A stretch of 64,000 nt of DNA, from assembly GCA_965649765.1 (NCBI GenBank), contig OZ287751.1, positions 68,882,001 to 68,946,000 of the forward strand. Direction: 5' to 3'. The stretch is from Bispira polyomma. Lineage: Eukaryota. Position 1 is the stretch's first letter. Every line of letters starts with the position of its first letter. Positions 8,321 through 51,168 of this stretch are shown here, piece after piece. A program made the translations under genes and the position numbers. The notes below the pieces were generated by a model. That model searched no databases, was not told the DNA's origin, and saw nothing but the letters and a program-made list of their open reading frames with translations.

Positions 8321-8403
8321 CTCAAGTGGAAACTGATTTCAAATGGTGCTAGATAGTGACAACTTAAACTCTACCCACCATGTGAAAACAGCTACCCTTT
8401 GAA
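8321..8403 (-). ncRNA. mir-29: pre-miRNA hairpin, mir-29 family (paralog 1); mature 3p UAGCACCAUUUGAAAUCAGUUU at 8330-8351
   Basis: The minus strand reads ...UUCAAAGGGUAGCUGUUUUCACAUGGUGGGUAGAG-loop-UCUAGCACCAUUUGAAAUCAGUUUCCACUUGAG. The 3p arm has the miR-29 seed AGCACCA, and its first 20 nt match miR-29b. The 5p arm (8371-8393) pairs with it and resembles vertebrate miR-29b-5p. The lower stem is extended, and a CNNC motif (CGUC) lies about 15 nt 3' of the mature end. Confidence 0.95.
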
Positions 8404-11400
8404 TGTTTTAGTAGCATTCAATGTGTGTTTTAGTAAGCTCCTCACTCAATCCGAAATATTGCCATGCCATTATAATCATGCAAAATTCATGAAATATTTT
8501 TTTCTTATATTTATGGTTTGTTTTCCTTTAAATCTACATGCAATAAATATAGTAGAAAGACTGTGTATCAGTCAAATATCTAAAATTTCTACTTGCGGCT
8601 AAACTTCGACCTAATCAATTTAATATTAGTATTGCTTAATTTAAGCACAAAACAACTGCTTCAAGTTCTTAATAAATGAGACTTCTATACCCATTCTAGT
8701 TACAGACCGTCTACTGTGGTATCATAAACGATCATCAAATTGACCAAAAAAAGGTTTCTTATATATATTTCACTCAGCAAACTAACAGATTTTGCTTGTG
8801 TTGAATAAGTTGCTCTTTCAATTCACATGAAGCTGATTCCACAAGAGGTTAATTTCAAGCATTTCCGTTGATACTATGAATTCAATTCATAATATGTGTT
8901 CAGTATCTGCCAACTAAATTTCTTTTTCAATCTAGCTGCGTTCAATAATTCTAGTAGGCTAAGAGCAGGTGCAAGCCATATACAAAATTGTTAGTAGAAA
9001 TTTTAGTAATGATATGGATATTTTATAAGTGATAAGTAGAAATAACTAAGAATTGAAATTGAAAATTACATTTTGTATTTAATACAAACCGAAGAAGTTG
9101 TGCAGTTAATGTAAATTACTTCACTCCATCACCTCTTTATCTGTAAAAAACTCAAATTAGAAACCTTTTCTTTTTCAATTAACACTTATTTGCAAATTAA
9201 ACTATCAATCATAGACCAGTATATCCACAAAAATAGAAACACGATTCATATATTTACCCAATTATACATTATTGTCCACGCAATTGTACATTATTACCTC
9301 CTCTACACAAAAATCGTTAGTATATGTATTGGGATGTTCCCATACACAAATATTATATCAAGTCTCTGTTCTGATAAGCGATAAAGATAGCTATATATAT
9401 ACATTGTATATGTACAAGACAAATACCCTTAAATACATAGACATGTACTGCCTCCCCAATACTTTCTACTTCTTATTGTACATTAAAGACACCCCTGATA
9501 GTCACTGCTAGCCTTGTCATTTTGTACCCCCAGCACAGAGACACATTAGAACTGTGTAGCTCATATTTCAAACTGCTGCTATTAATTAAAGACATCTCAC
9601 TCTGCACTTTGGTTTCACAACTCAATACACACCATTGCGACACACACACAACACACATACTATGGAATATATAGATCCCACTATTATATGCTAGCCTCAT
9701 TTTCATACACACAGAAAAAAGAAAAGAAATGCCTCGCCTGCACACAGTATTTTGATTTCAAACATGCATAACTCAAATAACCTGATCAATAATTCACATT
9801 TGCCACATAATAGATGCTGCCAGCAAATGAGCTCTGTATGTACACGTTTGATCTGCCAGTTCTCTCTCCCCCAACTGGTCAATACATTCCATAGAAGTAT
9901 CATTCACTTGGGGAGGAGAAAAGTAAGGGAGAAGGGGTGATGGGGGGCGAGCTGTGGGGGTAAAAATTCATCCTCGGAGGTGCTTAAAACTACACCACTG
10001 CTAATGTACATAATTATTCTGCCAAGAAAAAAAAAATTGTGGGGGTTTTGTTTCCATATTGATGGTTTTAGACAATTTTTTGGTTTGAAAAACCATCGGT
10101 GGGAAGTAGTTCTATATGCTATATTTTACAAATGACTTGCACTGTACAAATATACGGAGTAGCGGTATAGTAGTAGTAGTGACATGTGTGTGTGTTTGTG
10201 TCCTCCCCCAATGATTGATTGTGTTGCAGGTTAAACAGGTACATCGATACTAAAGGAAGGGAGAAAAACAACAACAAAAAAAGCATTCAATATAATGACA
10301 GCCAGTTTCATCATGATAATGATGATTAGGATGAACACAAAATGCTGCCACACAGTTTAATTTTATCCCCCATCACTGCTGGTATTTTTCTTTATATGTA
10401 TTTTCCTTATATGGGTATAAATTTCACGGACTGCTTTTTGAAAAGTAAAAATTGTAGAGAATCTCATTATCTGAATTTTGTATCATTCCAAATGCATTTA
10501 ATTTTATAAATTCATCTCCACTGTTCAAATTATTGTTGTGTTTCTGTTCTATTATACTAAAAAAACGCTTTTATTTGAGCGAAAGAAAATATCGTCGAGA
10601 ACTGAAAGAAATATTTCGGTAAAAGGTTACGGATATCTGGATCGTGGAGTTACTAAAACACAGACTACTTCGGGCATTTATTAACAGCCTCACGTATAAC
10701 TTTTTAAATGGGTAAGTCTGCTGCCCTATAACAACTTCCTATTACTAATTAAGAAGAAGCATTTCATGATACCACATATCACTTGCTGTTGGTAAACCTA
10801 CATAGCCAAAAGAGTTGTTAAATGTAAACATAATCTATATACACTTTTAAATTTGAAAGTTTTACTAGTGACAACAAATACAAATGTAATTGTTGTAAAT
10901 TAACATCAGTCCACTAGTCTACTGTATTTTCTTGGTAACAGTTATAACAAATATTGTTACAATGATCAAATGCTATAGTCCAAGACATACAAACCATTAT
11001 AATACTCACATATTTAACATTTGTTTTATGAATATCTATAGTAAATATTGTTATCTCGCTGCAAGTTACTGCTCTGACAGTGTTTTCAATAGCTTGTCAT
11101 CTATATTTCAACAACCAACAGATGTTGCAGTAAATTAACTAAACTCAAACGTTGATCTTTAACAGGAGGAGGATAATAAGAGAATTATAACCGTGTCTCA
11201 AAGTCAACACTTCAGGCCATCTTGAAATAGATATAGACAAAAGCGCTTGAAAAAAAAAACCCTCATTAAATCAATACAAGTAGAAGTATCTGCTTATTTG
11301 ATTTTACTTGAAAGATATTTACCATTCAGTGTCAAAGTTATACTATTATTTAATCAAAAAAAAAATACTATTCTTTAAAATTCATCATTTTTAAATGTCT

Positions 11401-12054
11401 ACATAACACATTTAAGTACTTCTGCTGTAGTCATCGATAACCGAATAATAAGAATAAGCTTTTAATAAATTTACATAATTAAGAAAGTTTACCTTAACTT
11501 TTGTCCTTCTCCATCACTTTTAAACCACTATTTTTATTATTGAAAATTGTATTTTGCATTTTTAACGCACCTTATTTATGTTGGGCATCTTCTAAATCGC
11601 ACAACAGAATCAACATTATTAAAAGAATATGTCAGGGAGAAAACTCGGATATTTGACCCACAAACTCGCCCCAACATGTTTTAGCATTCACAAGATCATC
11701 AAAATACATTCTTTAATGCACTCAGGCAATGGCAATATTTACGTTTTCGCTACCAGAAGCCTTGCACATGGACACAGATACACATGTAGTTTATAAGTCG
11801 AAGAATTTGATCAAATTACAGTCGGCCTCGCCTCAGAAAATTGCCCGCATGGAAATATCCACCAATAGTTTAACTTCCAACATTGCTGTCTCTCACTCTC
11901 CACATGAGCCACATCCACAGAAATACTAAAAGTGACATACTATATAAAACCCACCATGATCCAGCACACCCCCTCAAAAATGCTCTCCACTGCTCACTAT
12001 AAACATGCAAAAAAGAACCCACTAAAATATTGTTCCCGGCAAAATACTACTCAC

Positions 12055-12181
12055 CAGCAATAAATTCCACACTGTACTACTGCACCAAAGGGCAAGAACA
12101 TTCTAAAAGGCCACTACAGATGTGGGTGGGGTATATACACTAGGCTAGGGTTGTTCCCAGTATTACACAACTTCGAAGAGC
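12055..12181 (-). other. candidate internal exon (127 nt), probably non-coding, lying between the two mir-29 hairpins
   Basis: Acceptor CTTTCTGTCTCTGTATTCCTTAATATAG| and consensus donor CTG|GTGAGT (GT at 12054-12053). All three frames hit a stop when read from the acceptor. One internal ATG (12101) stays open to the donor (MFLPFGAVVQCGIYC, phase 2). Confidence 0.45.
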
Positions 12182-12216
12182 CTATATTAAGGAATACAGA
12201 GACAGAAAGCTTGGCA

Positions 12217-12272
12217 GGGGGTGGGGGTGGGGGTGGGGGGGGGTGGGGGTGGGGGGGGTGGGGGTGGGGGGG
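12217..12272 (+). repeat. (GGGGGT)n G-tract array with G-quadruplex potential
   Basis: Eight runs of at least 5 G separated by single T. Similar shorter arrays at about 18885-18915 (+) and 3772-3792 (-). Confidence 0.8.
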
Positions 12273-15200
12273 TCCCTCTCTACATAAAACATTCTAATAC
12301 ACATTCCCTGCCCTATTCCTTAGATAGAGAGGGGGGGACTGAGCGATGGGGGGGGGAGCAAGTATTGATCTTCCCAAATCGTGAATACGAAGCTCGGAAT
12401 GATTCATCTTAAGCTCCCGCTCCGTTCTCTACACCCCTTTTAGAGAAGCCCCCCCCTCTGTAACCTCCCCCCCCCCCCCTCATCTTGGTCCCAAACTGTT
12501 GCTCGGTTTGTTTTATTACTCACTATACCCAGCCAGAGATGCCATCTCTTTGAGCTTATTGCTTTTGAGAGAATGAAATAGGAACATTTTTTTTAACTAC
12601 TAAATTCCTCTCGGTAGATTATATGGCTTTTGATACATATGAAATTTTTGACAAATGAGGAGTTTCGCTTTTTCTTTTGCTCTTTTTTTAACAGCCCTTT
12701 GTAAATAAAAGAAACATGAAAAAACTCAAACGACTCACATATTATAAGCAAGGCGAACTACACTTGCAAATTTACTGAAAATTTTCTCATTTCTGACGGA
12801 CAATCGTATATATCAATCTAAGAATGGTAAAGTACGGAGCCAATTAAGTCATAGAAAACTAAAAAACACCCAAGAATCAAGTAAAATTGCTTTTATTCAA
12901 GTAATACACGCACACTTTAAATCTTAACCATGTATTTCGTTTGCAAACTCGCTCTTTTCTAGTACTCATATCTTTGTAAATATGAGGGAGATTATCGCCA
13001 TTTCAAATAGGAGTGTAAAATACTGGATACTCTAGCCCATCTGTAGCCTTGTGTCGCAATTGTTACCAACGCAATAGTGTGAAGCAATCAAGGGTTTTTA
13101 AATAGCACCAGTATGGCTAGTCACAAATAAATTACCACCATATCATACAAAACAATCATATCAACATGCAATCGCATTGCTTCATATGTGCTTACATGTA
13201 ACATCTGTGACTTTTTGTGATTTTTGATTACATTAAAGCATTAAAGCTTTGCAAAACAGTGATATTTAGAATTATACAAAGCAGAACACTAATGTTTAAC
13301 AGTGAGGCATCATAAAAATTTATTCATTTTTTGCAAAGCTTGTGTTATAGATTCCAAAACTGTGATCGTCAGAGTAAAATTTTACTTGTCAAACTACAAA
13401 CTGCAAAACACTAGGACCTTAAAAATCATTATTTTAATTAACGTGTGTAATTTTTCAATTCAACTAAACTATAAGCTGAAACTCGACAATGGCGCATTCA
13501 TGGTAATTTGTCTATTTAATGCCGACTTCAACTAGATGTTATTTCATAGGCATCTACTATAACATAAGCCATATTATAAAATACTTTGTTACAAAATTAC
13601 TGACACGACAGAGCCAACAATAATGTTTACAATGAATATCTTGTGGTAAAAATAAATACATGTACATCACAAACCAGAAATTAGACCCAGGCTAAAACGT
13701 GAATGCTGGAAAACTATTTGATTTTGAAAAGGAAAGGATACTTCGGCATTAAGACCCAGTGCATTAATGACCGTCTTTGACATATATGTAAAAAATAACA
13801 CTCAATAATTTTAACAAGTAATATATAGTATCTGAAATTTGCTCTTTAAATACTGGACAATATTTAATATGCAACTTCTTTGTAAATTTTAACAAAATAT
13901 TTGTTGTATGGATTTTTCTTTGCAAAAGCATCAGTTGCGACTGCAACTAAGGCTGTTTTGAGTATTTCTAACTAGAAAAAAATTGTTTACTTGAAAAATC
14001 ATAGCTGTGTTATTATTATAGGTGAAAATTCAATAAGTATTCTCTCCTGGAATGAAATAAATGAAATCGATAGCAAGTTTAAAAGGAAAGCAATGTAGCA
14101 GTGAAACATCTGTCCTCTTTTTCTTTTTATACAATCACTCGTTTCAAGTCCACTACCTTATGATGCTACTCATGTCCACAAAGATATTGTTCACAAATCT
14201 CCCTACAGTTATTGGTTCTTGCCTTTGACTGCCTCTTAAATTGATTTTTTTTCTCTCTCTTAATTCCTGTGCCCTGGCACTCCCAAAAATATGTAGCGAC
14301 TTTAAGGTTGCCCCTTAATTTAAGTAATATTATCCACTTAGACTACATCATTTACCTGCTATATTTCGATGACCTTATTACTTCATCATGCACAAGACGC
14401 AATGTACAATTGTAGATTTTTAGCATGCCAACCAAGTGTTTTTGCACTAGAAGAAAATAATACATGAAAAATATGCATATACATGTGCATACCGAACCTG
14501 GCTTTTTTCAAAGGATTTTAGTAAAGTACAATCTTAAGCTCTGTCTTCAGTTCTCCTTCAATTAGTAGTGGGCTGTCTTTAGAACTAATCAAATACAAGC
14601 TCCACATCACCAAGGAAAGGGTACTTCAGCTACCCAAGCCCTCACAGACCCTTCATGTACCTTCCCCTTCCCCTCAATAATCAACAGACCCCCTCTTTCT
14701 CACACACAACCTACAGCTTTTCTGGATATCTTACACAAATTCTGGCTGGTGACTCTTTATTCCATAAAATAATACACTAACGCACTATAATATGTCATAT
14801 TAAAAATATTGGACGATATATAACATGCACATGTAATCAGTTATTCAAATAAAATGAAGAACATTCAATCAAAAGTTAAAAATTTAAAAAAAAATTTGAA
14901 TTAAGGTTAGAGAAACACAGCGGATTTGGTCATATTTATACAACCGCTAATCATGAATTTTATTGCCAATTTTCCTATTTGCTATGCAATAAAACAATAT
15001 TAAAACTCAAGACCTTGTCAATAATTTTTAATTGCCTTTTTGTATGATTTCCCCATCATATAATTTTCAAAGTGATTTTATGTAATAAACACACTCGCTT
15101 TTATCTTTAAATCAAGACCATGGATATTTATAATTGTAAACAGCATGCCATAGTCCAGTTTTACACTCATGATCTTTAGTTGCGAGTACTTTAAACTTTA

Positions 15201-15332
15201 TTTTATATAGTTTAACCTCTTTAGGTAGAACTCTGTTAATTTGATTTCCCTGTTATGTAGACAGAAAAAAATGTATTCCCACAAAGGTCTTTCCTTTTAA
15301 AATTTACCTTGTTAAATGAAACTCCTGCTTTA

Positions 15333-15516
15333 AGGGCTTTACAGACAGTCCACGACACAGCACGACATTTTAAAGATTTCTCCAAGGCCAATTGCAGTGC
15401 CATGCTGTGCAGTGTAGTGCTGGGAGCAGTCTGAATGAACAATATACAGTATATTGTCTTATTATAAGTTTCTATTTTTATGTTGGTGTCGTGTCGTGGG
15501 AGGTCTGTAAAGCCCT
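15333..15516. mobile_element. PIF/Harbinger-like MITE with perfect TTA target duplication, nested in a family B MITE
   Basis: TTA|AGGGCTTTACAGAC...CCACGACAC ... GTGTCGTGG...GTCTGTAAAGCCCT|TTA. Confidence 0.8.
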
Positions 15517-18500
15517 TTAGTAGAGTTTTCTTCTTTTTTTTTTGTCCCTTGAGATTTTACTTAAAGCAGATCCACCTAAATTGTGCAAAACTAATATGAT
15601 ATATTACCAATAATATGACAAAAGAAAGACTCATTTCTGAACTGGACATCATACACACCCAATACAACCTCTTTTATCCAAACTTTTAGCATCCACATTT
15701 TTATTAAAAATTTATTAGGCTTAAAACCCACCATACTTGCATTCTCATAAAGGCATAGGCGTTTGTTTAAAACTTACCAGATACATACATTAAGTGATGA
15801 TACCCTATAACGAGTCTTTTGTTAATGTGACGTCACACAATAGAAATCTATTGCTGTACACACTGCATATAAAAGCCATGCTGTACCCTTATTACGCAAT
15901 GCAGTCCCTTCGATTTCAACACAACGCAAGGTGATTGACACAACACAAACGTTTTATTGTATACACGCAAATGCTTACGCTTACGAAAATCTGGAAGGCC
16001 TACTATACACAGCATTATTCTCTGCCACACAAATTGCAACCAATTCTTGCAGTTGCTATGCAGTTCATTGACCAATCTCTTCATTACCAACACCCGCCTT
16101 ATAACACACAGACAACCCCCCCCCCCCCCCCCCCCCCCGCCCGTCACCAACCCACAGTGTCTCCTCTCCCCTATATTTAGAAGTCTACTACCCCACCCTA
16201 CCTTTGTGACTAAAAAGTCCAGTATTACCCACAAACCTACAATTACATGATGACAATAGTCACAACAGCAAAACACACATTCATTACACAGCAGACTTAG
16301 CCTTGCACAAGACGTGTGTCCACACAAACTCTCATTTCAGATACTATGGAAACCCCTTTAAGTCAAACCTCAAAGGACCAAGAACACAATAATACCTCTA
16401 GCTAAGCAGGATTTGTACTTACAAGAGTGAATTTTAAAAGAGAATCCTTTTGGGAGATTACTAATTGTTCTCGATATTACAGAGAAATTGACTGGAAAGA
16501 GTTCTACTTAAATGGGTTTGATTGTTTAACAAAAATAATTTTTGGCCAAATTACTTTTTTACAAGTACATTAAGGTGTTAGTAACTGTTAGTTAGTATAA
16601 CCTTCATCCCTCCTGTTCTATAATATGACAACCTTCTTTTATTAAGATTACATTTATTCAGGTAATTGTAGCCTTTCGCAGGGCTACCAAGAGACCAATT
16701 GCTAGTTGAAGCCATCTACGACTACTAGTAGCTTTTTAATCACACACACCACTACCCATAACCCCACCACCACAGGGCGGTGTAGATCCACCATCCTTGC
16801 TGTTCTATAATATGACAAGCTTCTTTTCCCTATCACACAGTCTCCCTCTATGCTTGTCGACCTTCTACAAGTAAATATAATCCCCTTTGATTTTGTTGTC
16901 CCTTCATTATATATGCAGTCTAGATCACCATTAGTTCTCAAGGTTAAAACTCACACTCATCTTAAACTATAAGGCTTTATGGGGGAAGTGTAATTAAAAC
17001 TATGAACAGTGTAACACATATATTTGTGGCACTATATAATTTTTAATTTATTTTCCAATATTGATCTCTAATATAAAGTCACAGGTTTTTTATGTACACT
17101 ATTTTCTGTATTATTTAGACATAAGCAGTGTGGGTTTTTGAGTTTGAGTTTATTCCTAGAGTATACCGGCTACCCTAGGAGCCTTTCATTCCTAGCATGC
17201 CCTCTCTATTAGGGTGTCTCCTGTCCTAATCATCTCAACCCAGCCTTAATTTAGGTAATGGTCAATTCCTGTCTCTTTTTGTTTTGTAGATAGATTTTTT
17301 GTTTTTAGGGGAGGTGGGGGTTTTTTGAGAAGCATAAGGACTAGCCGCCAATCATCCTTGCTTTCTCATACTCCCTGGTTTTTATGTCCCCTCCCCCTAT
17401 TATAGTCTCCTCCCCAGAAGTCGTTTACTCAGCAAATGGCTTCTGGTCACATGATGAACTTAAAGCTCACATTAGGTTTCAGATCACATCTGATTATTTC
17501 CACTCTCCAACTGACGGAGGGGTTTGCCCCTAAAACTCACCGCTGTGCTATATTTATCCTTACAGAGGCCGCACTGGCTGAAGAAACATGTCCTCGCTTC
17601 ACTTTTAGTATTCCCCTTAAATGCCTTAATGCCCCCATATGAAATAATTCATGCTCTCAGCATGTACCATCTAAAAATATCACTTTTACCCCACAGCGGG
17701 GAAAAACATATTGCAAAATTCAGTAGAATTCTATTATTAATAAAAATGCTGAAGATGATAGATTTATCACATTTTATGACACTTAAAACTACAACCCTTT
17801 GCAATATTTGAGCCGTCACAGATCTGTTCCTGCGCCATCGAGCTCCCCTCTCCTTCCAGCCTTTTCTCTTTATTGGATCAATGGGTCCAGCACTTCTAAT
17901 GTAATTTATGCCTCCAAATCAACACACCCACCCCGCCACACAAGCTTTCTCTTTCACTGGCTAAACTCTCACAATTTGCCAGGCTTGCACGGAAAGGAAT
18001 AGCACAAAATGGAGACCATATTAGGAAAAATAGTAGAGGTTTAAGGATGATTTTGTTTTGTTTTATTAATTTAGTTAAATTTTAAGTAGATTTTTTTAGT
18101 TGTCTATAATAAATAGCAAATGGTGGTGTAAAAATATTAAAGAAAGACTTGTTTGTAAATTGTAAAACAAAATATGAATTGAGCATGCTGAGTATAAAGC
18201 AGGAAAAAAGAAATCCAGTAGGACTTCATATTACTCTACGTACTGCAAAAGGTGAAAATATTGCTTAGTTAATGCTTACCTAAAATTTCACTAAATCACT
18301 ATTTTACTTATCTTAATAATTAAGTTGGACTTATTCTAACTGTCGGTCAGATAATATAAATTCAACACTTGGGCTTAACTAATTTTTGAGTGCACAATTA
18401 AAAAAACAAAATCTTTCAACTCTATCTCGACAGTTTTGAACTCTGTTAAGATTTTTTTATGACAATACCATTAAAGGACATAAAAAAGTGAAAAGCAACA

Positions 18501-19064
18501 ACAAAATAAGACATCTAAAATGAAACCTCAACATGAAACAGATACAAACAAAATGACAAAGTGACGTGATAATGAAAATAAAAACTTAATGATAATGTGA
18601 TGTGACAGTTGATAATACAATATTTTTTATGAATAAAAAAGGAAGTGACAGTTCAGTTCAAAATTGGTACAAAAAAAAAAAGCTGGACAAATGCTAGGGT
18701 GTTTACTGTAATGATGACGGAATGGGGGGGAAACATTCTGACAGTGATAAAACAGGCTAAAAATCATCCTTCATGAGGTTATATATATAATTTTTTTTTT
18801 TTGTCTTTAAAACCAGAACCCCCATTACTACAACTGAATGCATTTACCAATTGATGGCTGTATTCTAACACAATCAAAAGTATTAGGGGGTGGGGTGGGG
18901 GTGGGGGGGGGGGTGTGACATGATAATTGGGCAAGGAGTCTGCTGGGGGTTTGACATGACTTTTACTGACTCATATTCAGACACCCTCTGAGGTTTCATA
19001 ACTGCATAGAAAAAAAAGTTAGGACCTCTGTAATAATAATCATAATAATAACTGAGGAGGGCAC

Positions 19065-19292
19065 TTGAGTTAAGTACATATACCTCCACCACCAGATGCC
19101 ACAGTCGCACCAAAAAAATAACCAGTTTATCGCTGTTTGGCCTCCGCCGCCTTGGGATGCGAGCTGAGTCTATCAAAATTTTATGGTGTCTTCCTCGGCC
19201 CATGCCCTAGCGATCCACCAAGTTTGTTTAAAATCAGGTGAGTAGTTTTTTCGTAATACTCGCGCATAAATAGACAGGTGCTAAAAACTAGT
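19065..19292. mobile_element. decayed HINE-like fragment
   Basis: CpG-rich piece CCTCGGCCATGCCCTAGCGATCCACCAAGTTTG ... AGGTGCTAAAAAC, resembling HINE cores and ends. Confidence 0.4.
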
Positions 19293-19546
19293 GGCAGTAA
19301 TAACAAGTTACAGGTTGGATTAAGGGAGTATGTGTACCACACAATTTAAGTGCATACGACAATTGTGAATTTTAAGTGACCATTTTAAGTGGTCATCCCA
19401 ATCACTATGCATCTACTTCACAGTACCTGGGAGTCTCTGACTGGGATTGAACACAGGTCATCTGTTTTTCAAAATCAAGTGTTTTATCTTCTAGGATACA
19501 GGGGCAGATTATTATTGTGAGTCACTGCAGTTAATAATAGTATTTA

Positions 19547-19636
19547 CAAACATTTTCAATAGCATTTAAACCCTCTATTGGCATTCAAGTCAAACATTTT
19601 CAATAGCATTTGAACCCTCTATTGGCATTCAAGTCA
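19547..19636. repeat. 44-bp tandem duplication
   Basis: CAAACATTTTCAATAGCATTT(A/G)AACCCTCTATTGGCATTCAAGT occurs twice. Confidence 0.9.
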
Positions 19637-20443
19637 GACATCCAGTTCACCAACAGTTATAAAGAGAGAACTACAGTATACTGAGCAGAATGCAATATTC
19701 ATGCAAATAGTAAAAGTCAATCATAAAATTATTAGAAAAAAACTTTGAAAAGTCTTAAACAACAATAAAAACTATTTTTTTCTTGCGTATCATCATATAC
19801 AGAAAAAATATCATGCATTTTATACAGGCAAAGCACAGGAACAGAACAACTCTTTTTTTTTTACAACATTTCACCCACAGAAACTAGAACCAAATGCCTT
19901 TGACTGCAATCACCTTTGCAAGAAGTTGGATCACCCATTTTGCGTTAAGTATCCTATCCAGGCATACGGCGGATAGAGTAAATGCCAAGTAAGTACTAAG
20001 TACCCATGGTATTCATTGCATCACATGACCATATTCTGTGTTCCAATGAAGGCATACACCTTCCAACTTGTCATACATACAATGCATAATGCAGCAGAGA
20101 TTCTATATTCCCTTTTTTTTGTTTGTGTTTTTTTGTTTTGTTTAAACATATTTTATTCACAATTATAACGGCAACAATCATACAAAGCCTTCTTGCAATG
20201 AGATATTTCCTATTGTATCGTAGTTTCCATCCATATTTTTTAATGCACCATTCTATACTACATATCTATCTATGAAGCCAGTTTAACATCATACACAAGG
20301 CGCCCATGTCCACTTGTCCAGTTAGTTTTTAATCCACTAAAACACTGATGTATATATACATGTATATATAGAGATGTTACTGTACACATTCCAGAAATAG
20401 AGAGATCATGCAATACACAGTAGTACGATGGCAGACAAGGCAA

Positions 20444-20528
20444 GACACGACAGCACTGATTTCAAATGGTGCTAGATCAAATGCATTCTGGGTAACTCTA
20501 GCGTCCACTTGAGACCAGTTTGTCGTCA
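20444..20528 (-). ncRNA. mir-29: pre-miRNA hairpin, mir-29 family (paralog 2, miR-29b/miR-285-like 3' end); mature 3p UAGCACCAUUUGAAAUCAGUGC at 20453-20474
   Basis: The minus strand reads GACGACAAACUGGUCUCAAGUGGACGCUAGAG-loop-UCUAGCACCAUUUGAAAUCAGUGCUGUCGU. The arms pair over about 30 bp, including the ACGACA/UGUCGU lower stem. The mature sequence differs by one base from Drosophila miR-285 (UAGCACCAUUCGAAAUCAGUGC). A CNNC motif (CUGC) lies about 19 nt downstream. Confidence 0.95.
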
Positions 20529-23383: not shown

Positions 23384-24828
23384 AACTAGAAAACGGTTTT
23401 TGATAACAAAAATGAAGCGTCCCTAAAGTTGAAATAATAATAATGTTTAGTGTACAAGGTTTGATATTGTTTAAAAGTTCACATATAAGCAGAATCAGCA
23501 CTTTGGTCAATATAAGCTCGAAAAGGAGCATTATTTCCGAGATAACAGACGTTTTCTAAAAAGACACTCTATCTAAAAAGACGCTCTATCTAGCACCGTT
23601 TCCAAGATAACAGACATTTTCGTAAAAGTCCCAGAAATTCAAGATGGCCGCCAAAATCCAACATTTTTTCAAAAGTTTATATATATGCAAAATCAACCCG
23701 ATGGGTCGAAAATGAGCTCGAAATCGCTCTATCTAGCACCGTTTCCGAGATAACGGACATTTTCGAAAAAGACGAAGAAATTCAAGATGGCCGCTAAAAT
23801 TGAAAAAATTTTTAAAGTTTACATATAAGTAAAATCAACCCTGTGGGATGAAAATTAGCTCGAAATCGCTCTATCTAGCACCGTTTCAGAGATAATGGAC
23901 ATTTAAAAAAAAACCTTAATTTTTAAAATTTTTGAAATAAAATCGTTTTATATCAGTAACGATCGCAGATTTTTGGATGGGGTAAAAAATAAATAAAAAT
24001 TCAGGCTATTCTTTAAAAGTTACACGCTGCATGTACTGGTCTAAAATTAAAAATAAAAAAAATCCTCACACGCTCAAAAAAGCACCCATCAACACATTTT
24101 TTTCCCCATTTTGTATGATTGATCGACCCTGTCAATCAGTCAATTATCACCAGATTGATCTAAAAATTTACGGACATCTATGCTTTGGTATTTGCAATGT
24201 GCATGCTAAATTTCATTGAACTATGACAAGTAATTCAAAAGAAAAGTTGATAAAAGTGCAAGATAGAGCAAAATAGAGCAAAGTACTCATTTGAAGTACT
24301 CAGTACTCATTGAGTACTGGACTTAGAACTGTGAGATTTTTACATCATGCATAAAATCAAAAAGTAGATGAATAACTTATACCAAGAAAAAGCCGAAATC
24401 CCAGTAGTTTCTGAGATAGCAAAAAAGTACCGATTTTTCGCATTTCAATAAAAATCAATCAGTTGGCAATCGGTCAATTATCATCCGATTAATCTCATCA
24501 GCGTCTCCCGTCCTGAAAATTGCCTTACCAAGGTACATACCAAATTTCATTGAGCTATGATGAATATTTTCTGAGAAAATCTAGTGACAAGCACTTTTAC
24601 ACCCCCAGGGTCACCTGACATTTAAGTAGGCCAAAGTTCAAAGCCAAGAATATCAAAAAAATTTCCCACTCCTGGTTAAGAGAACTGCCAAAAATAATTT
24701 TGATGCAGATAATATTGAAGGAGATATTCAAGGAAGACCATGCGGCGGCGGCACAGGCGGCGGCATAGGCGGCAGCGAGGAAACCAGGGGTGAAACCAAA
24801 TAAGCGCCCTTTTCAAGGGACGCTTAAT
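23384..24828 (-). mobile_element. non-autonomous Helentron/HINE (DINE-1-like) element, copy 1, with 143-bp internal tandem repeats
   Basis: Highly similar to 49667-51168. Subterminal inverted repeats AAGCGTCCCT / AGGGACGCTT. Partial IR hairpin TAAGCGCCCTT-TTC-AAGGGACGCTTA. GGC microsatellite near one end. Short stem-loop followed by CTAGTT at the other end. AAGATGGCCG recurs at 23641 and 23784 (period 143). Confidence 0.8.
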
Positions 24829-37320: not shown

Positions 37321-37485
37321 CTTCTTGCGTTCCTCCTCTTCATGGATGACTTTGTTCTGGTAAGCCAGCTCCTGGGCCCTGATCAGGTTTAACTGTAAGT
37401 AGATCTTTTCCTTTAACTTCTCAGTATCCTCTTCCTTCAGTTCCTGCTTCACAAGCTCCCAGTACCTGAAGCTCTTCAAGTTTTT
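37321..37485 (-). CDS. internal coding exon (55 codons, phase 0-0) of an unidentified protein with a charged, helical or coiled-coil-like segment: KNLKSFRYWELVKQELKEEDTEKLKEKIYLQLNLIRAQELAYQNKVIHEEEERKK
   Basis: Acceptor TGTGTTTTATTTCAG| at 37487-37486 and donor AAG|GTGAGA at 37320-37319. The 165 nt are open and a multiple of 3, GC is raised over the flanks, and the peptide looks protein-like. It lies within ORF 37243..37587 of the track. Confidence 0.85.
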
Positions 37486-49666: not shown

Positions 49667-51168
49667 ACAAAAAAAAACGGTTTTTGATAACAAAAACGAA
49701 GCGTCCCTAAAGTTGAAATAATAATGAAATTGTTTAGTGTACAAGGTTTGATATTGTTTATAAGTTGACATATAAGCAGAATCAGCACTTTTGGTCAATG
49801 TAAGCTCGAAAAGGATCACCATTTCCGATATAACAGACGTTTTCTAAAAAGACACAGAAATTGAAGATGGTTGCCCAAATCAAAAATTACTATAAAAATT
49901 TACATAAAAGAAAAATCAGCCCTATGAGTCGAAAAGGAGCTTGAAATCGCTCTATCTAGCACCGTTTCTGAGATAAAGGACATTTTCGAAAAAGACACAG
50001 AAATTCAAGATGGCCGCCAAAATGTAACATTTTTTTAAAAGTTTAAATATAAGTAAAATCAACCCTGTGGATCGAAAATGAGCTCGAAATCGCTCTATCT
50101 AGCACCGTTTCCGAGATAAAGGACATTTTCGTAAAAGTCCCAGAAATTCAAGATGGCCGCCAAAATTAAAATTTTTTTGAAAGATTACATATACGTAAAA
50201 TCAACCCTGTGGATCAAAAATGAGCTCAAAATCGCTCTATCTAGCACTGTTTCAGAGATAATGGACATTTAAAAAAAAACCTTAATTTTTAAAATTTTTG
50301 AAATTAAAATCGTTTTATATCAGTAACGATCGCATATTTTTGGATGGGGTAAAAAATAAATAAAAATTCAGGCTATTCTTTAAAAGTTACGCGCTGCATG
50401 TACTGGTTTAAAATTAAAAATAAAAAAAATCCTCACACACTCAAAAAAGCACCCATCAACACATTTTTTTCCCCATTTTGTATGATTGATCGACCCTGTC
50501 AATCAGTCAATTATCACCAGATTGATCTAAAAATTTACGGACATCTATGCTTTGGTATTTGCAATGTGCATGCGAAATTTCATTGAACTATAACAAGTAC
50601 TTCAAAAGAAAAGTTGATAAAAGTGCAAGATAGAGCAAAATAGAGCAAAATACTCATTTGAAGTACTTAGTATTCATTGAGTACTGGACTTAGAACTGTC
50701 AGATTTTTACATCATACATAAAATCAAAAAGTAGATGAATAACTTATACCAAGAAAAAGCCGAAATAGCAATAGTTTCCGAGATAGCAAAAAAGTACCGA
50801 TTTTTCGCATTTCAATAAAAATCAATCGGTTGGCAATCGGTCAATTATCATCCGATTAATCTCATCAGGGTCTTCCGTCCTGAAACTTGCCTTACTAAGG
50901 TACATACCAAATTTCATTAAGCTATGATGAATATTTTTTGAGAAAACCTAGTGACAAGCACTTTTACACCCCCAGGGTCACATGACATTTAAGTAGGCCA
51001 AAGTTCAAAGCCAAGAATATCAAAAAAATTTCCCACTCCTGGTTAAGAGAACTGCCAAAAATAATTTTGATGCAGATAATATTGAAGGAGATATTCAAGG
51101 AAGACCACGCGGCGGCGAGGAAACCAGGGGTGAAACCAAATAAGCGCCCTTTTGAAGGGACGCTTAAT
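49667..51168 (-). mobile_element. non-autonomous Helentron/HINE element, copy 2
   Basis: Same termini and body as copy 1. AAGATGG occurs at 49864, 50007 and 50150 (period 143). The GGC tract is shorter. Confidence 0.8.

Follow-up and report, generated by a model that had tools for sequence, protein, structure and literature searches.

How do two copies of a microRNA (miRNA) gene that lie 12 kb apart on the same strand relate to each other, as separately regulated paralogues or as one ordinary cluster, and on which messages would their products act? The question is raised by a pair of mir-29 hairpins in 64,000 nucleotides (nt) of the annelid Bispira polyomma (GCA_965649765.1, contig OZ287751.1, positions 68,882,001 to 68,946,000), a stretch that is here called the window and to which all positions given without a contig label refer. 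A sequence-only reading of the window had proposed that the spacing allows separate regulation and that the differing 3' ends of the two products affect their localisation or stability. On balance, we favour a different account, in which an ancestral two-copy cluster, with a b-type copy upstream and an a-type copy downstream, lies in one predicted intron, is likely read as one transcript, and yields two miRNAs that would both cut the message of a GATA4/5/6 gene at a 19-base site. The pair itself is expected; what matters, and what is new here, is the predicted target.

The pair is marked by a 23-nt word with two exact copies in the window, at 8332-8354 and 20455-20477; none of 100 shuffles contained two matches. 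Both copies are on the minus strand, 12,123 nt apart, and in each the word makes up the 3p arm of a hairpin. The downstream hairpin (8321-8402) folds with -26.7 kcal/mol (z -3.7) and the upstream hairpin (20444-20528) with -32.6 kcal/mol (z -4.3); each has a terminal loop and pairs 18 of the 22 mature bases, where the family asks for at least 16 pairs in the mature arm, and each carries the family seed, AGCACCA, at nt 2-8 of the 3p product. With the Rfam mir-29 model (RF00074, gathering score 46.7), the downstream copy (8327-8396) reaches 59.4 bits, whereas the upstream copy (20450-20523), at 33.7 bits (E 0.0027), falls short of gathering. A second covariance model, built from 21 mir-29 hairpins of other organisms, scores them at 66.1 bits (E 6.5e-14) and 41.8 bits (E 6.7e-8), respectively, and the 150 kb of flanking DNA contain no further Rfam match at gathering score. 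As far as can be judged from the DNA, seed, arm and fold support placement of both copies in the mir-29 family, and the miRNA calls are likewise supported. Contigs of two sequencing runs, possibly the source data of the assembly, cover both hairpins without differences.

The predicted Drosha product of the upstream copy is 67 nt long (20453-20519, minus strand) and that of the downstream copy 63 nt (8330-8392, minus strand). The upstream mature RNA is predicted at 20452-20474 (22-23 nt, b-type end AGUGC(U), shared with the outside hairpins L029, L030, L042 and L050) and the downstream one at 8330-8351 (22 nt, a-type end AGUUU, shared with L028, L031, L043 and L051). The fold predicts mature 5' ends at 20474 and 8351, and the pairing table, read with an overhang of 2 nt, predicts star arms at 20497-20519 and 8370-8392. 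The CNNC motif of miRNA precursors is placed by rule 16-18 nt beyond the 3' cut; its offsets at these hairpins are 14-15 and 18-19, varying with the mature length. The mature RNAs are the same over nt 1-20 and then continue with UU (downstream) or GC(U) (upstream), and the star arms and loops are dissimilar. The descriptive part of the sequence-only reading, namely the exact repeat, its place in the 3p arms of two predicted precursors, the predicted mature 5' ends, the common nt 1-20 followed by different ends, and the unlike 5p arms and loops, is thus confirmed.

The common core leads to a third locus. In the genome (1.035 Gb in 75 contigs), whose COX1 has annelid sequences as its 23 top matches (73-76% identity), nt 1-19 have three exact matches, the two hairpins and C11:6782845-6782863 (L024:845-863), of which the last shows no hairpin fold and no match to the 21-hairpin model. 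It lies antisense to a GATA gene with two finger exons, 1.67 kb beyond the stop codon. Among solved structures, this gene matches GATA-4 best (151 bits over 67 amino acids (aa), compared with 142 for GATA-3), and its two fingers, together with a basic region closest to GATA4/5/6, indicate the GATA4/5/6 class; a protein search with the first GATA exon found nothing. At L024:3958-4210 this gene has no intron separating the second finger from the basic region, whereas the other GATA loci have retained one there. Against the transcript, nt 1-19 pair exactly, with an A opposite nt 1 and a G:U pair at nt 20, and the two miRNAs would form duplexes of -32.1 and -32.4 kcal/mol with it. Since nt 1-20 are the same in both, the two miRNAs would be expected to act alike on seed targets as well as on the C11 site.

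That the site belongs to the GATA4/5/6 mRNA, within the predicted 3' untranslated region (UTR), is probable. From the stop codon to about 2 kb the DNA is AT-rich and has no repeat match in the 509 kb of DNA compared, the 200 bp that surround the site occur only once in the genome, and five AATAAA signals follow 1935-2001 nt after the stop, that is, 258-324 nt beyond the site. The site is unchanged in contigs of three of three sequencing runs (again possibly source data); as these contigs cover introns, what they confirm is the DNA only.

How often such a match should arise by chance was estimated in two ways. Markov models of orders 0-6 predict 0.014-0.032 exact matches to nt 1-19 per genome, and the mismatch background with a reversed control predicts 0.008-0.029. 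With up to two mismatches allowed, the genome contains 19 matches (3 exact, 3 with one mismatch and 13 with two), so the two-mismatch rate is 13/1,539 variants, or 0.008 each, compared with 47/1,597, or 0.029, in the reversed control. Two one-mismatch matches (C8:10877251 and C8:10880003; L090, L091) sit in near-identical inverted stretches 2.7 kb apart, which are probably the ends of a transposon.

Seed sites for miR-29 are also frequent in the GATA family at large. The genome has six GATA loci, and within 2 kb past the stop codon the 7-nt seed match occurs five times, in four of the six genes; both counts are the highest of 140 letter permutations, and the opposite strand of the same tails has 0 sites. 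With the discovery site excluded, four sites stand against 0.54 expected (P 0.002), where the background is 448 kb of DNA from the flanks, intronic and intergenic rather than from other UTRs. Four window lengths were tried (P 0.001-0.005); the 3-5-kb figures include a repeat-borne site of a paralogue, hence the 2-kb figures are quoted. Two genes, at C4:55.32 Mb and C4:55.43 Mb (L080, L083), which lie about 110 kb apart and face each other, are presumably of the GATA1/2/3 class, as judged by a basic-region motif that we take to be typical of it. Each has a miR-29 seed site past its stop. In the lophotrochozoans surveyed in PMC2383905, as far as its passages on gene number go, there is a single GATA123 gene and there are three or four GATA456 genes, some of them linked; the linkage of GATA456 genes recurs here.

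If the C11 site is transcribed, its pairing would favour slicing. The seed is unbroken, nt 9-12 are paired, and pairing runs far into the 3' half, so that both miRNAs would cut the message opposite nt 10-11, between C11:6782854 and C11:6782855, while repressing seed targets, several GATA genes included, to the same degree. A miRNA-class Argonaute, the one such protein among the 25 matches listed, is encoded at C11:37.70 Mb, and its exons hold all four D-E-D-H residues, read with motifs that we take to be those of the catalytic tetrad. Five Piwi-type loci were seen as well (C8:13.66, C3:98.05, C8:17.05, C3:88.91 and C6:76.66 Mb), two pairs of which are near-duplicate. From the sequence, we rate actual slicing of the GATA4/5/6 site at slightly under an even prospect.

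The same site might instead trigger target-directed decay of miR-29: its seed match is an 8mer, its 3' pairing exceeds 6 bp, and triggers with central pairing sometimes work (PMC10899785). We consider this very improbable. The validated triggers described in that source typically have an unpaired centre of 3-11 nt that blocks nt 9-10, a loop that the C11 site does not have, and the catalytic residues of the Argonaute are intact; full central pairing thus favours cutting of the message over decay of the miRNA. The closest comparison is Nrep/libra, the trigger for vertebrate miR-29b, which likewise pairs extensively with miR-29; the C11 site differs from it in being without a central loop and in not discriminating between the two copies.

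A more serious competitor to slicing, and one that we hold quite possible even if the smaller chance, is that the pair is ordinary, that the match at the GATA gene arose by chance or as a neutral fragment pasted from the downstream hairpin, perhaps outside the mRNA, and that only plain seed sites let miR-29 act on GATA genes. Several observations weigh in this direction and against our preferred account. An expectation of 0.01-0.03 matches is small, yet not negligible over a large scan, and three non-hairpin matches with one mismatch were observed where 0.5-1.7 are expected, one of which (C8:22837842) has no hairpin and no evident gene within 50 kb. The seed-site excess was measured against intronic and intergenic DNA, as said above. 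Three AATAAA signals (986, 1342 and 1520 nt after the stop) precede the C11 site, and a shorter GATA4/5/6 mRNA could omit it. The site also agrees with the downstream hairpin in 26 of 29 nt, among them loop-side bases that are not required for pairing (five of the six nt ahead of the mature 5' end are shared), and because of this likeness it may descend from the miRNA gene itself, as a pasted hairpin fragment that is possibly neutral. There is no support for conservation of the long site from the tandem GATA paralogue, and none of the 31 metagenome loci that carry the 19-nt core (0/31) has a GATA finger beside it. Against the chance account stand the antisense orientation of the site, its position less than 2 kb past the stop and ahead of an AATAAA cluster, and its membership in a seed-rich family. 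If 25,000 genes with 1.7-kb tails are assumed, no more than some 2% of positions and strands offer an antisense landing in a 3' tail (a factor of ~0.02), and a pasted fragment, if transcribed, would still be a substrate for slicing. An extended site 2.75 kb past the tandem paralogue (-25.1 kcal/mol) had been considered and was dropped, as it lies inside a repeat and beyond the AATAAA cluster.

Slicing by miRNAs is reported to be rare in bilaterians, with miR-196/HOXB8 among the few cases (PMC4206712, PMC7935066, both in part). The prediction made here resembles that case in that a conserved bilaterian miRNA has an almost fully complementary site in the mRNA of a transcription factor with a developmental role; it differs in miRNA, target and phylum, and in that cleavage and conservation have been shown for HOXB8, whereas for the C11 site cleavage is predicted. 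In Platynereis, miR-29 has been seen in ciliated cells of the apical region and in putative mechanosensory ones (PMC3939940), and GATA456 is a marker for both midgut endoderm and mesoderm in two marine worms (PMC2938726), according to the portions of these papers that deal with expression; by analogy, the two domains would fit a role of miR-29 in clearing the GATA message. A literature search, largely outside subscription journals, found no paper that pairs miR-29 with GATA456, nor was one on this subject among the titles and abstract openings that a wider search listed.

With regard to the pair, the arrangement in the window is common to all pairs at hand. Metagenome contigs were scanned for the 19-nt core; of the 31 loci that carry it, 23 have a hairpin and 8 do not, and six outside pairs could be compared, spaced by 4,138 (L030/L028), 2,598 (L034), 1,148 (L047), 895 (L033), 259 (L053) and 165 nt (L046). 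In all six, the AGUG-ending copy is upstream and the other copy downstream, as in the window, and L030/L028 have the very same two 3' ends. Four pairs (1,148, 895, 259 and 165 nt) are of vertebrate type, the upstream mature sequence being that of human miR-29b and the downstream one that of miR-29c as given in PMC2871053; vertebrate pairs had been said to lie less than 1 kb apart, which is true of three of these and not of the one at 1,148 nt. Duplicates of mir-29 are reported from deuterostomes and from Capitella (PMC4238352, in part). Since all outside pairs have this order and these 3'-end types, the divergence goes far back and is not peculiar to the window; the differences in 3' ends, star arms and loops are long-standing and shared, and the pair is an ordinary arrangement. 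It agrees with the mir-29 family and the vertebrate clusters in seed, 3p mature arm, hairpin shape and b-before-a order, and over nt 1-21 the upstream copy is identical to human miR-29b (table in PMC2871053). The a-type copy has a star arm that looks closer to the b stars of vertebrates. Unlike the vertebrate mir-29b/a and b/c clusters, the window pair ends in AGUGC(U) and AGUUU, has a far wider gap and is predicted to lie in an intron of a coding gene; human mir-29 host genes are non-coding RNAs. The eight non-hairpin metagenome loci, six of which have the same base at nt 20, were considered as a conserved class of targets and rejected as coding chance: four are in long open frames that read LISNGAN (ankyrin-like and others), and no frame of 80 aa was found in the other four.

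The gap of 12,123 nt, the widest among the seven pairs (165-4,138 nt outside), probably finds its explanation in the predicted host gene. A splice-site scan gave six minus-strand exons whose phases are consistent in order, in window coordinates that run on into the flanks: 66771-66603, 37485-37321, -1455 to -1527, -11515 to -11798, -16911 to -17039 and -25884 to -26025. The exon at 37321-37485 is predicted as coding, with AG/GT ends, an open frame of 55 aa and homologues of 73% and 44% identity. Both hairpins lie inside the 38.8-kb gap that follows it, the next exon being 1,455 nt left of base 1, and the remaining predicted introns of the gene measure 5-29 kb. With both hairpins in one predicted intron on the same strand and neighbouring introns of such length, 12 kb needs no special cause and is likely a matter of intron expansion in a 1-Gb genome. 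We are fairly confident that the two hairpins share one intron of a predicted coding gene, and almost as much so that they are transcribed together. Atlas searches gave no usable match naming the host gene. On the minus strand, 8000-64000 has a steady excess of G over C and of T over A, which fits a long transcription unit on that strand.

Joint transcription could also start from a promoter within the intron, upstream of 20528, so that the copies are expressed together and independently of the host gene. The expression in Platynereis cited above would suit this (PMC3939940, in part), and the 16.8 kb of intron upstream of the first hairpin, with CpG mildly raised at 20.5-22.5 kb, leave room for it; no upstream segment passes island criteria, however, and the same-strand host gene supplies a transcript by default. 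This makes an own promoter rather unlikely to us; it is in any case compatible with the GATA prediction.

A promoter between the hairpins, which would let the copies be regulated separately, is what the sequence-only reading had suggested, along with a candidate exon. The wide gap speaks for it, and one segment there passes the criteria of a CpG island (15956-16165, 210 bp, no strand assigned, GC at least 50% and CpG observed/expected at least 0.6); it is single copy, is likely the island meant and may be a promoter. It is marginal, nevertheless, as it holds a long C-run and lies between repeats. A high-copy interspersed repeat is at 15330-15520 (2,204 candidates, of which 40 were scored, with ~75-80% identity) and a second one, next to the segment, at 15760-15950 (135 candidates, 40 scored). 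No credible exon was found between the hairpins; the best candidate, 15430-15308, overlaps the high-copy repeat and was rejected. With one predicted intron on one strand, among introns of 5-29 kb, separate regulation through the spacing is not supported.

The second part of that proposal concerns the 3' ends. Nuclear enrichment of human miR-29b, to which AGUGUU had been linked, is confirmed in the parts of PMC2871053 that bear on it; isomiRs with a shortened motif are equally nuclear there, and another miRNA that carries the motif is not enriched, so that the generality of the motif is not supported. As AGUGUU is absent from both copies here, which end in AGUGC(U) and AGUUU, there is no basis in the sequence for a localisation effect, and the split of the 3' ends is common to all pairs compared. 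By analogy, the two copies may differ in stability, because Nrep/libra destroys miR-29b and spares 29a/c (PMC10899785, in part), a paralogue-selective decay known from vertebrates. No trigger of the Nrep/libra type was found in the stretches examined. Promoter and 3'-end divergence taken together, we regard this proposal as improbable. At position 2480 of the minus strand of L014, counted from the start of that strand (some 77 kb to the left of the window and ~11 kb beyond the TSGA13-like stop described below), a site with seed pairing, a 4-nt gap and 10 bp of 3' pairing reaches -26.7 kcal/mol with the upstream and -21.3 kcal/mol with the downstream copy; it has the shape of a decay trigger and is the best non-hairpin site in 448 kb, and it may be a chance match.

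Downstream of the pair and on the same strand, at 64-75 kb, two exons match TSGA13 (PF14994) in the order of the profile, one to positions 80-122 and the other to 233-273 (G000:C4:68815452-68815574, L106, and L012:4191-4349). Scored separately, they reach 16.9 bits (E 0.004) and 24.4 bits, both under the Pfam cut-off of 27, which tells against the assignment; the 233-273 match is the only TSGA13-like match genome-wide. No exon joining the host chain to these exons was found, and the two sets may belong to one gene or to two. A protein search with the last TSGA13-like exon found nothing, and no literature on TSGA13 in invertebrates was among the matches listed. In human and mouse, TSGA13, KLF14, mir-29 and MKLN1 are adjacent (PMC1865561), and genes of that mammalian region are also given in PMC3441634, as far as the relevant parts of both sources go. 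The region resembles human 7q32 (TSGA13 - KLF14 - mir-29 - MKLN1) in that a TSGA13-like gene adjoins the pair; it differs in its other neighbours, which resemble PARP, Bicaudal-D and NAA10, not COPG2 or MKLN1. Should the TSGA13 linkage be real, it would be a synteny marker for the orthology of the annelid and human mir-29 clusters.

Put together, these observations permit a wider reading, which we offer tentatively and with less confidence than in slicing at this one site: in annelids, miR-29 would slice GATA4/5/6 mRNA as a switch in the style of plants and cnidarians, a lophotrochozoan counterpart of miR-196/HOXB8, through a site that was possibly pasted in, and the cluster would have been kept beside TSGA13 since the bilaterian ancestor. 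If this is true, a pan-bilaterian miRNA of ciliated and sensory cells removes a regulator of gut and endomesoderm, which touches on the question of whether bilaterians kept targeting of the plant type or evolved it anew. The predicted cut at C11 also gives an exact base for a slicing test on a core gut regulator.

As for the remaining surroundings, exons of a PARP regulatory domain lie upstream of the pair (L019-L021, plus strand), and downstream exons (L116, L122) are presumably Bicaudal-D-like and NAA10-like, as we take them to be from their translations. Within the window, an element that contains a 143-bp tandem repeat is present twice, at 23502-24580 and 49790-50950, and every unit of the repeat has a 9-10-nt match to the 5' end region of miR-29 that is probably incidental.

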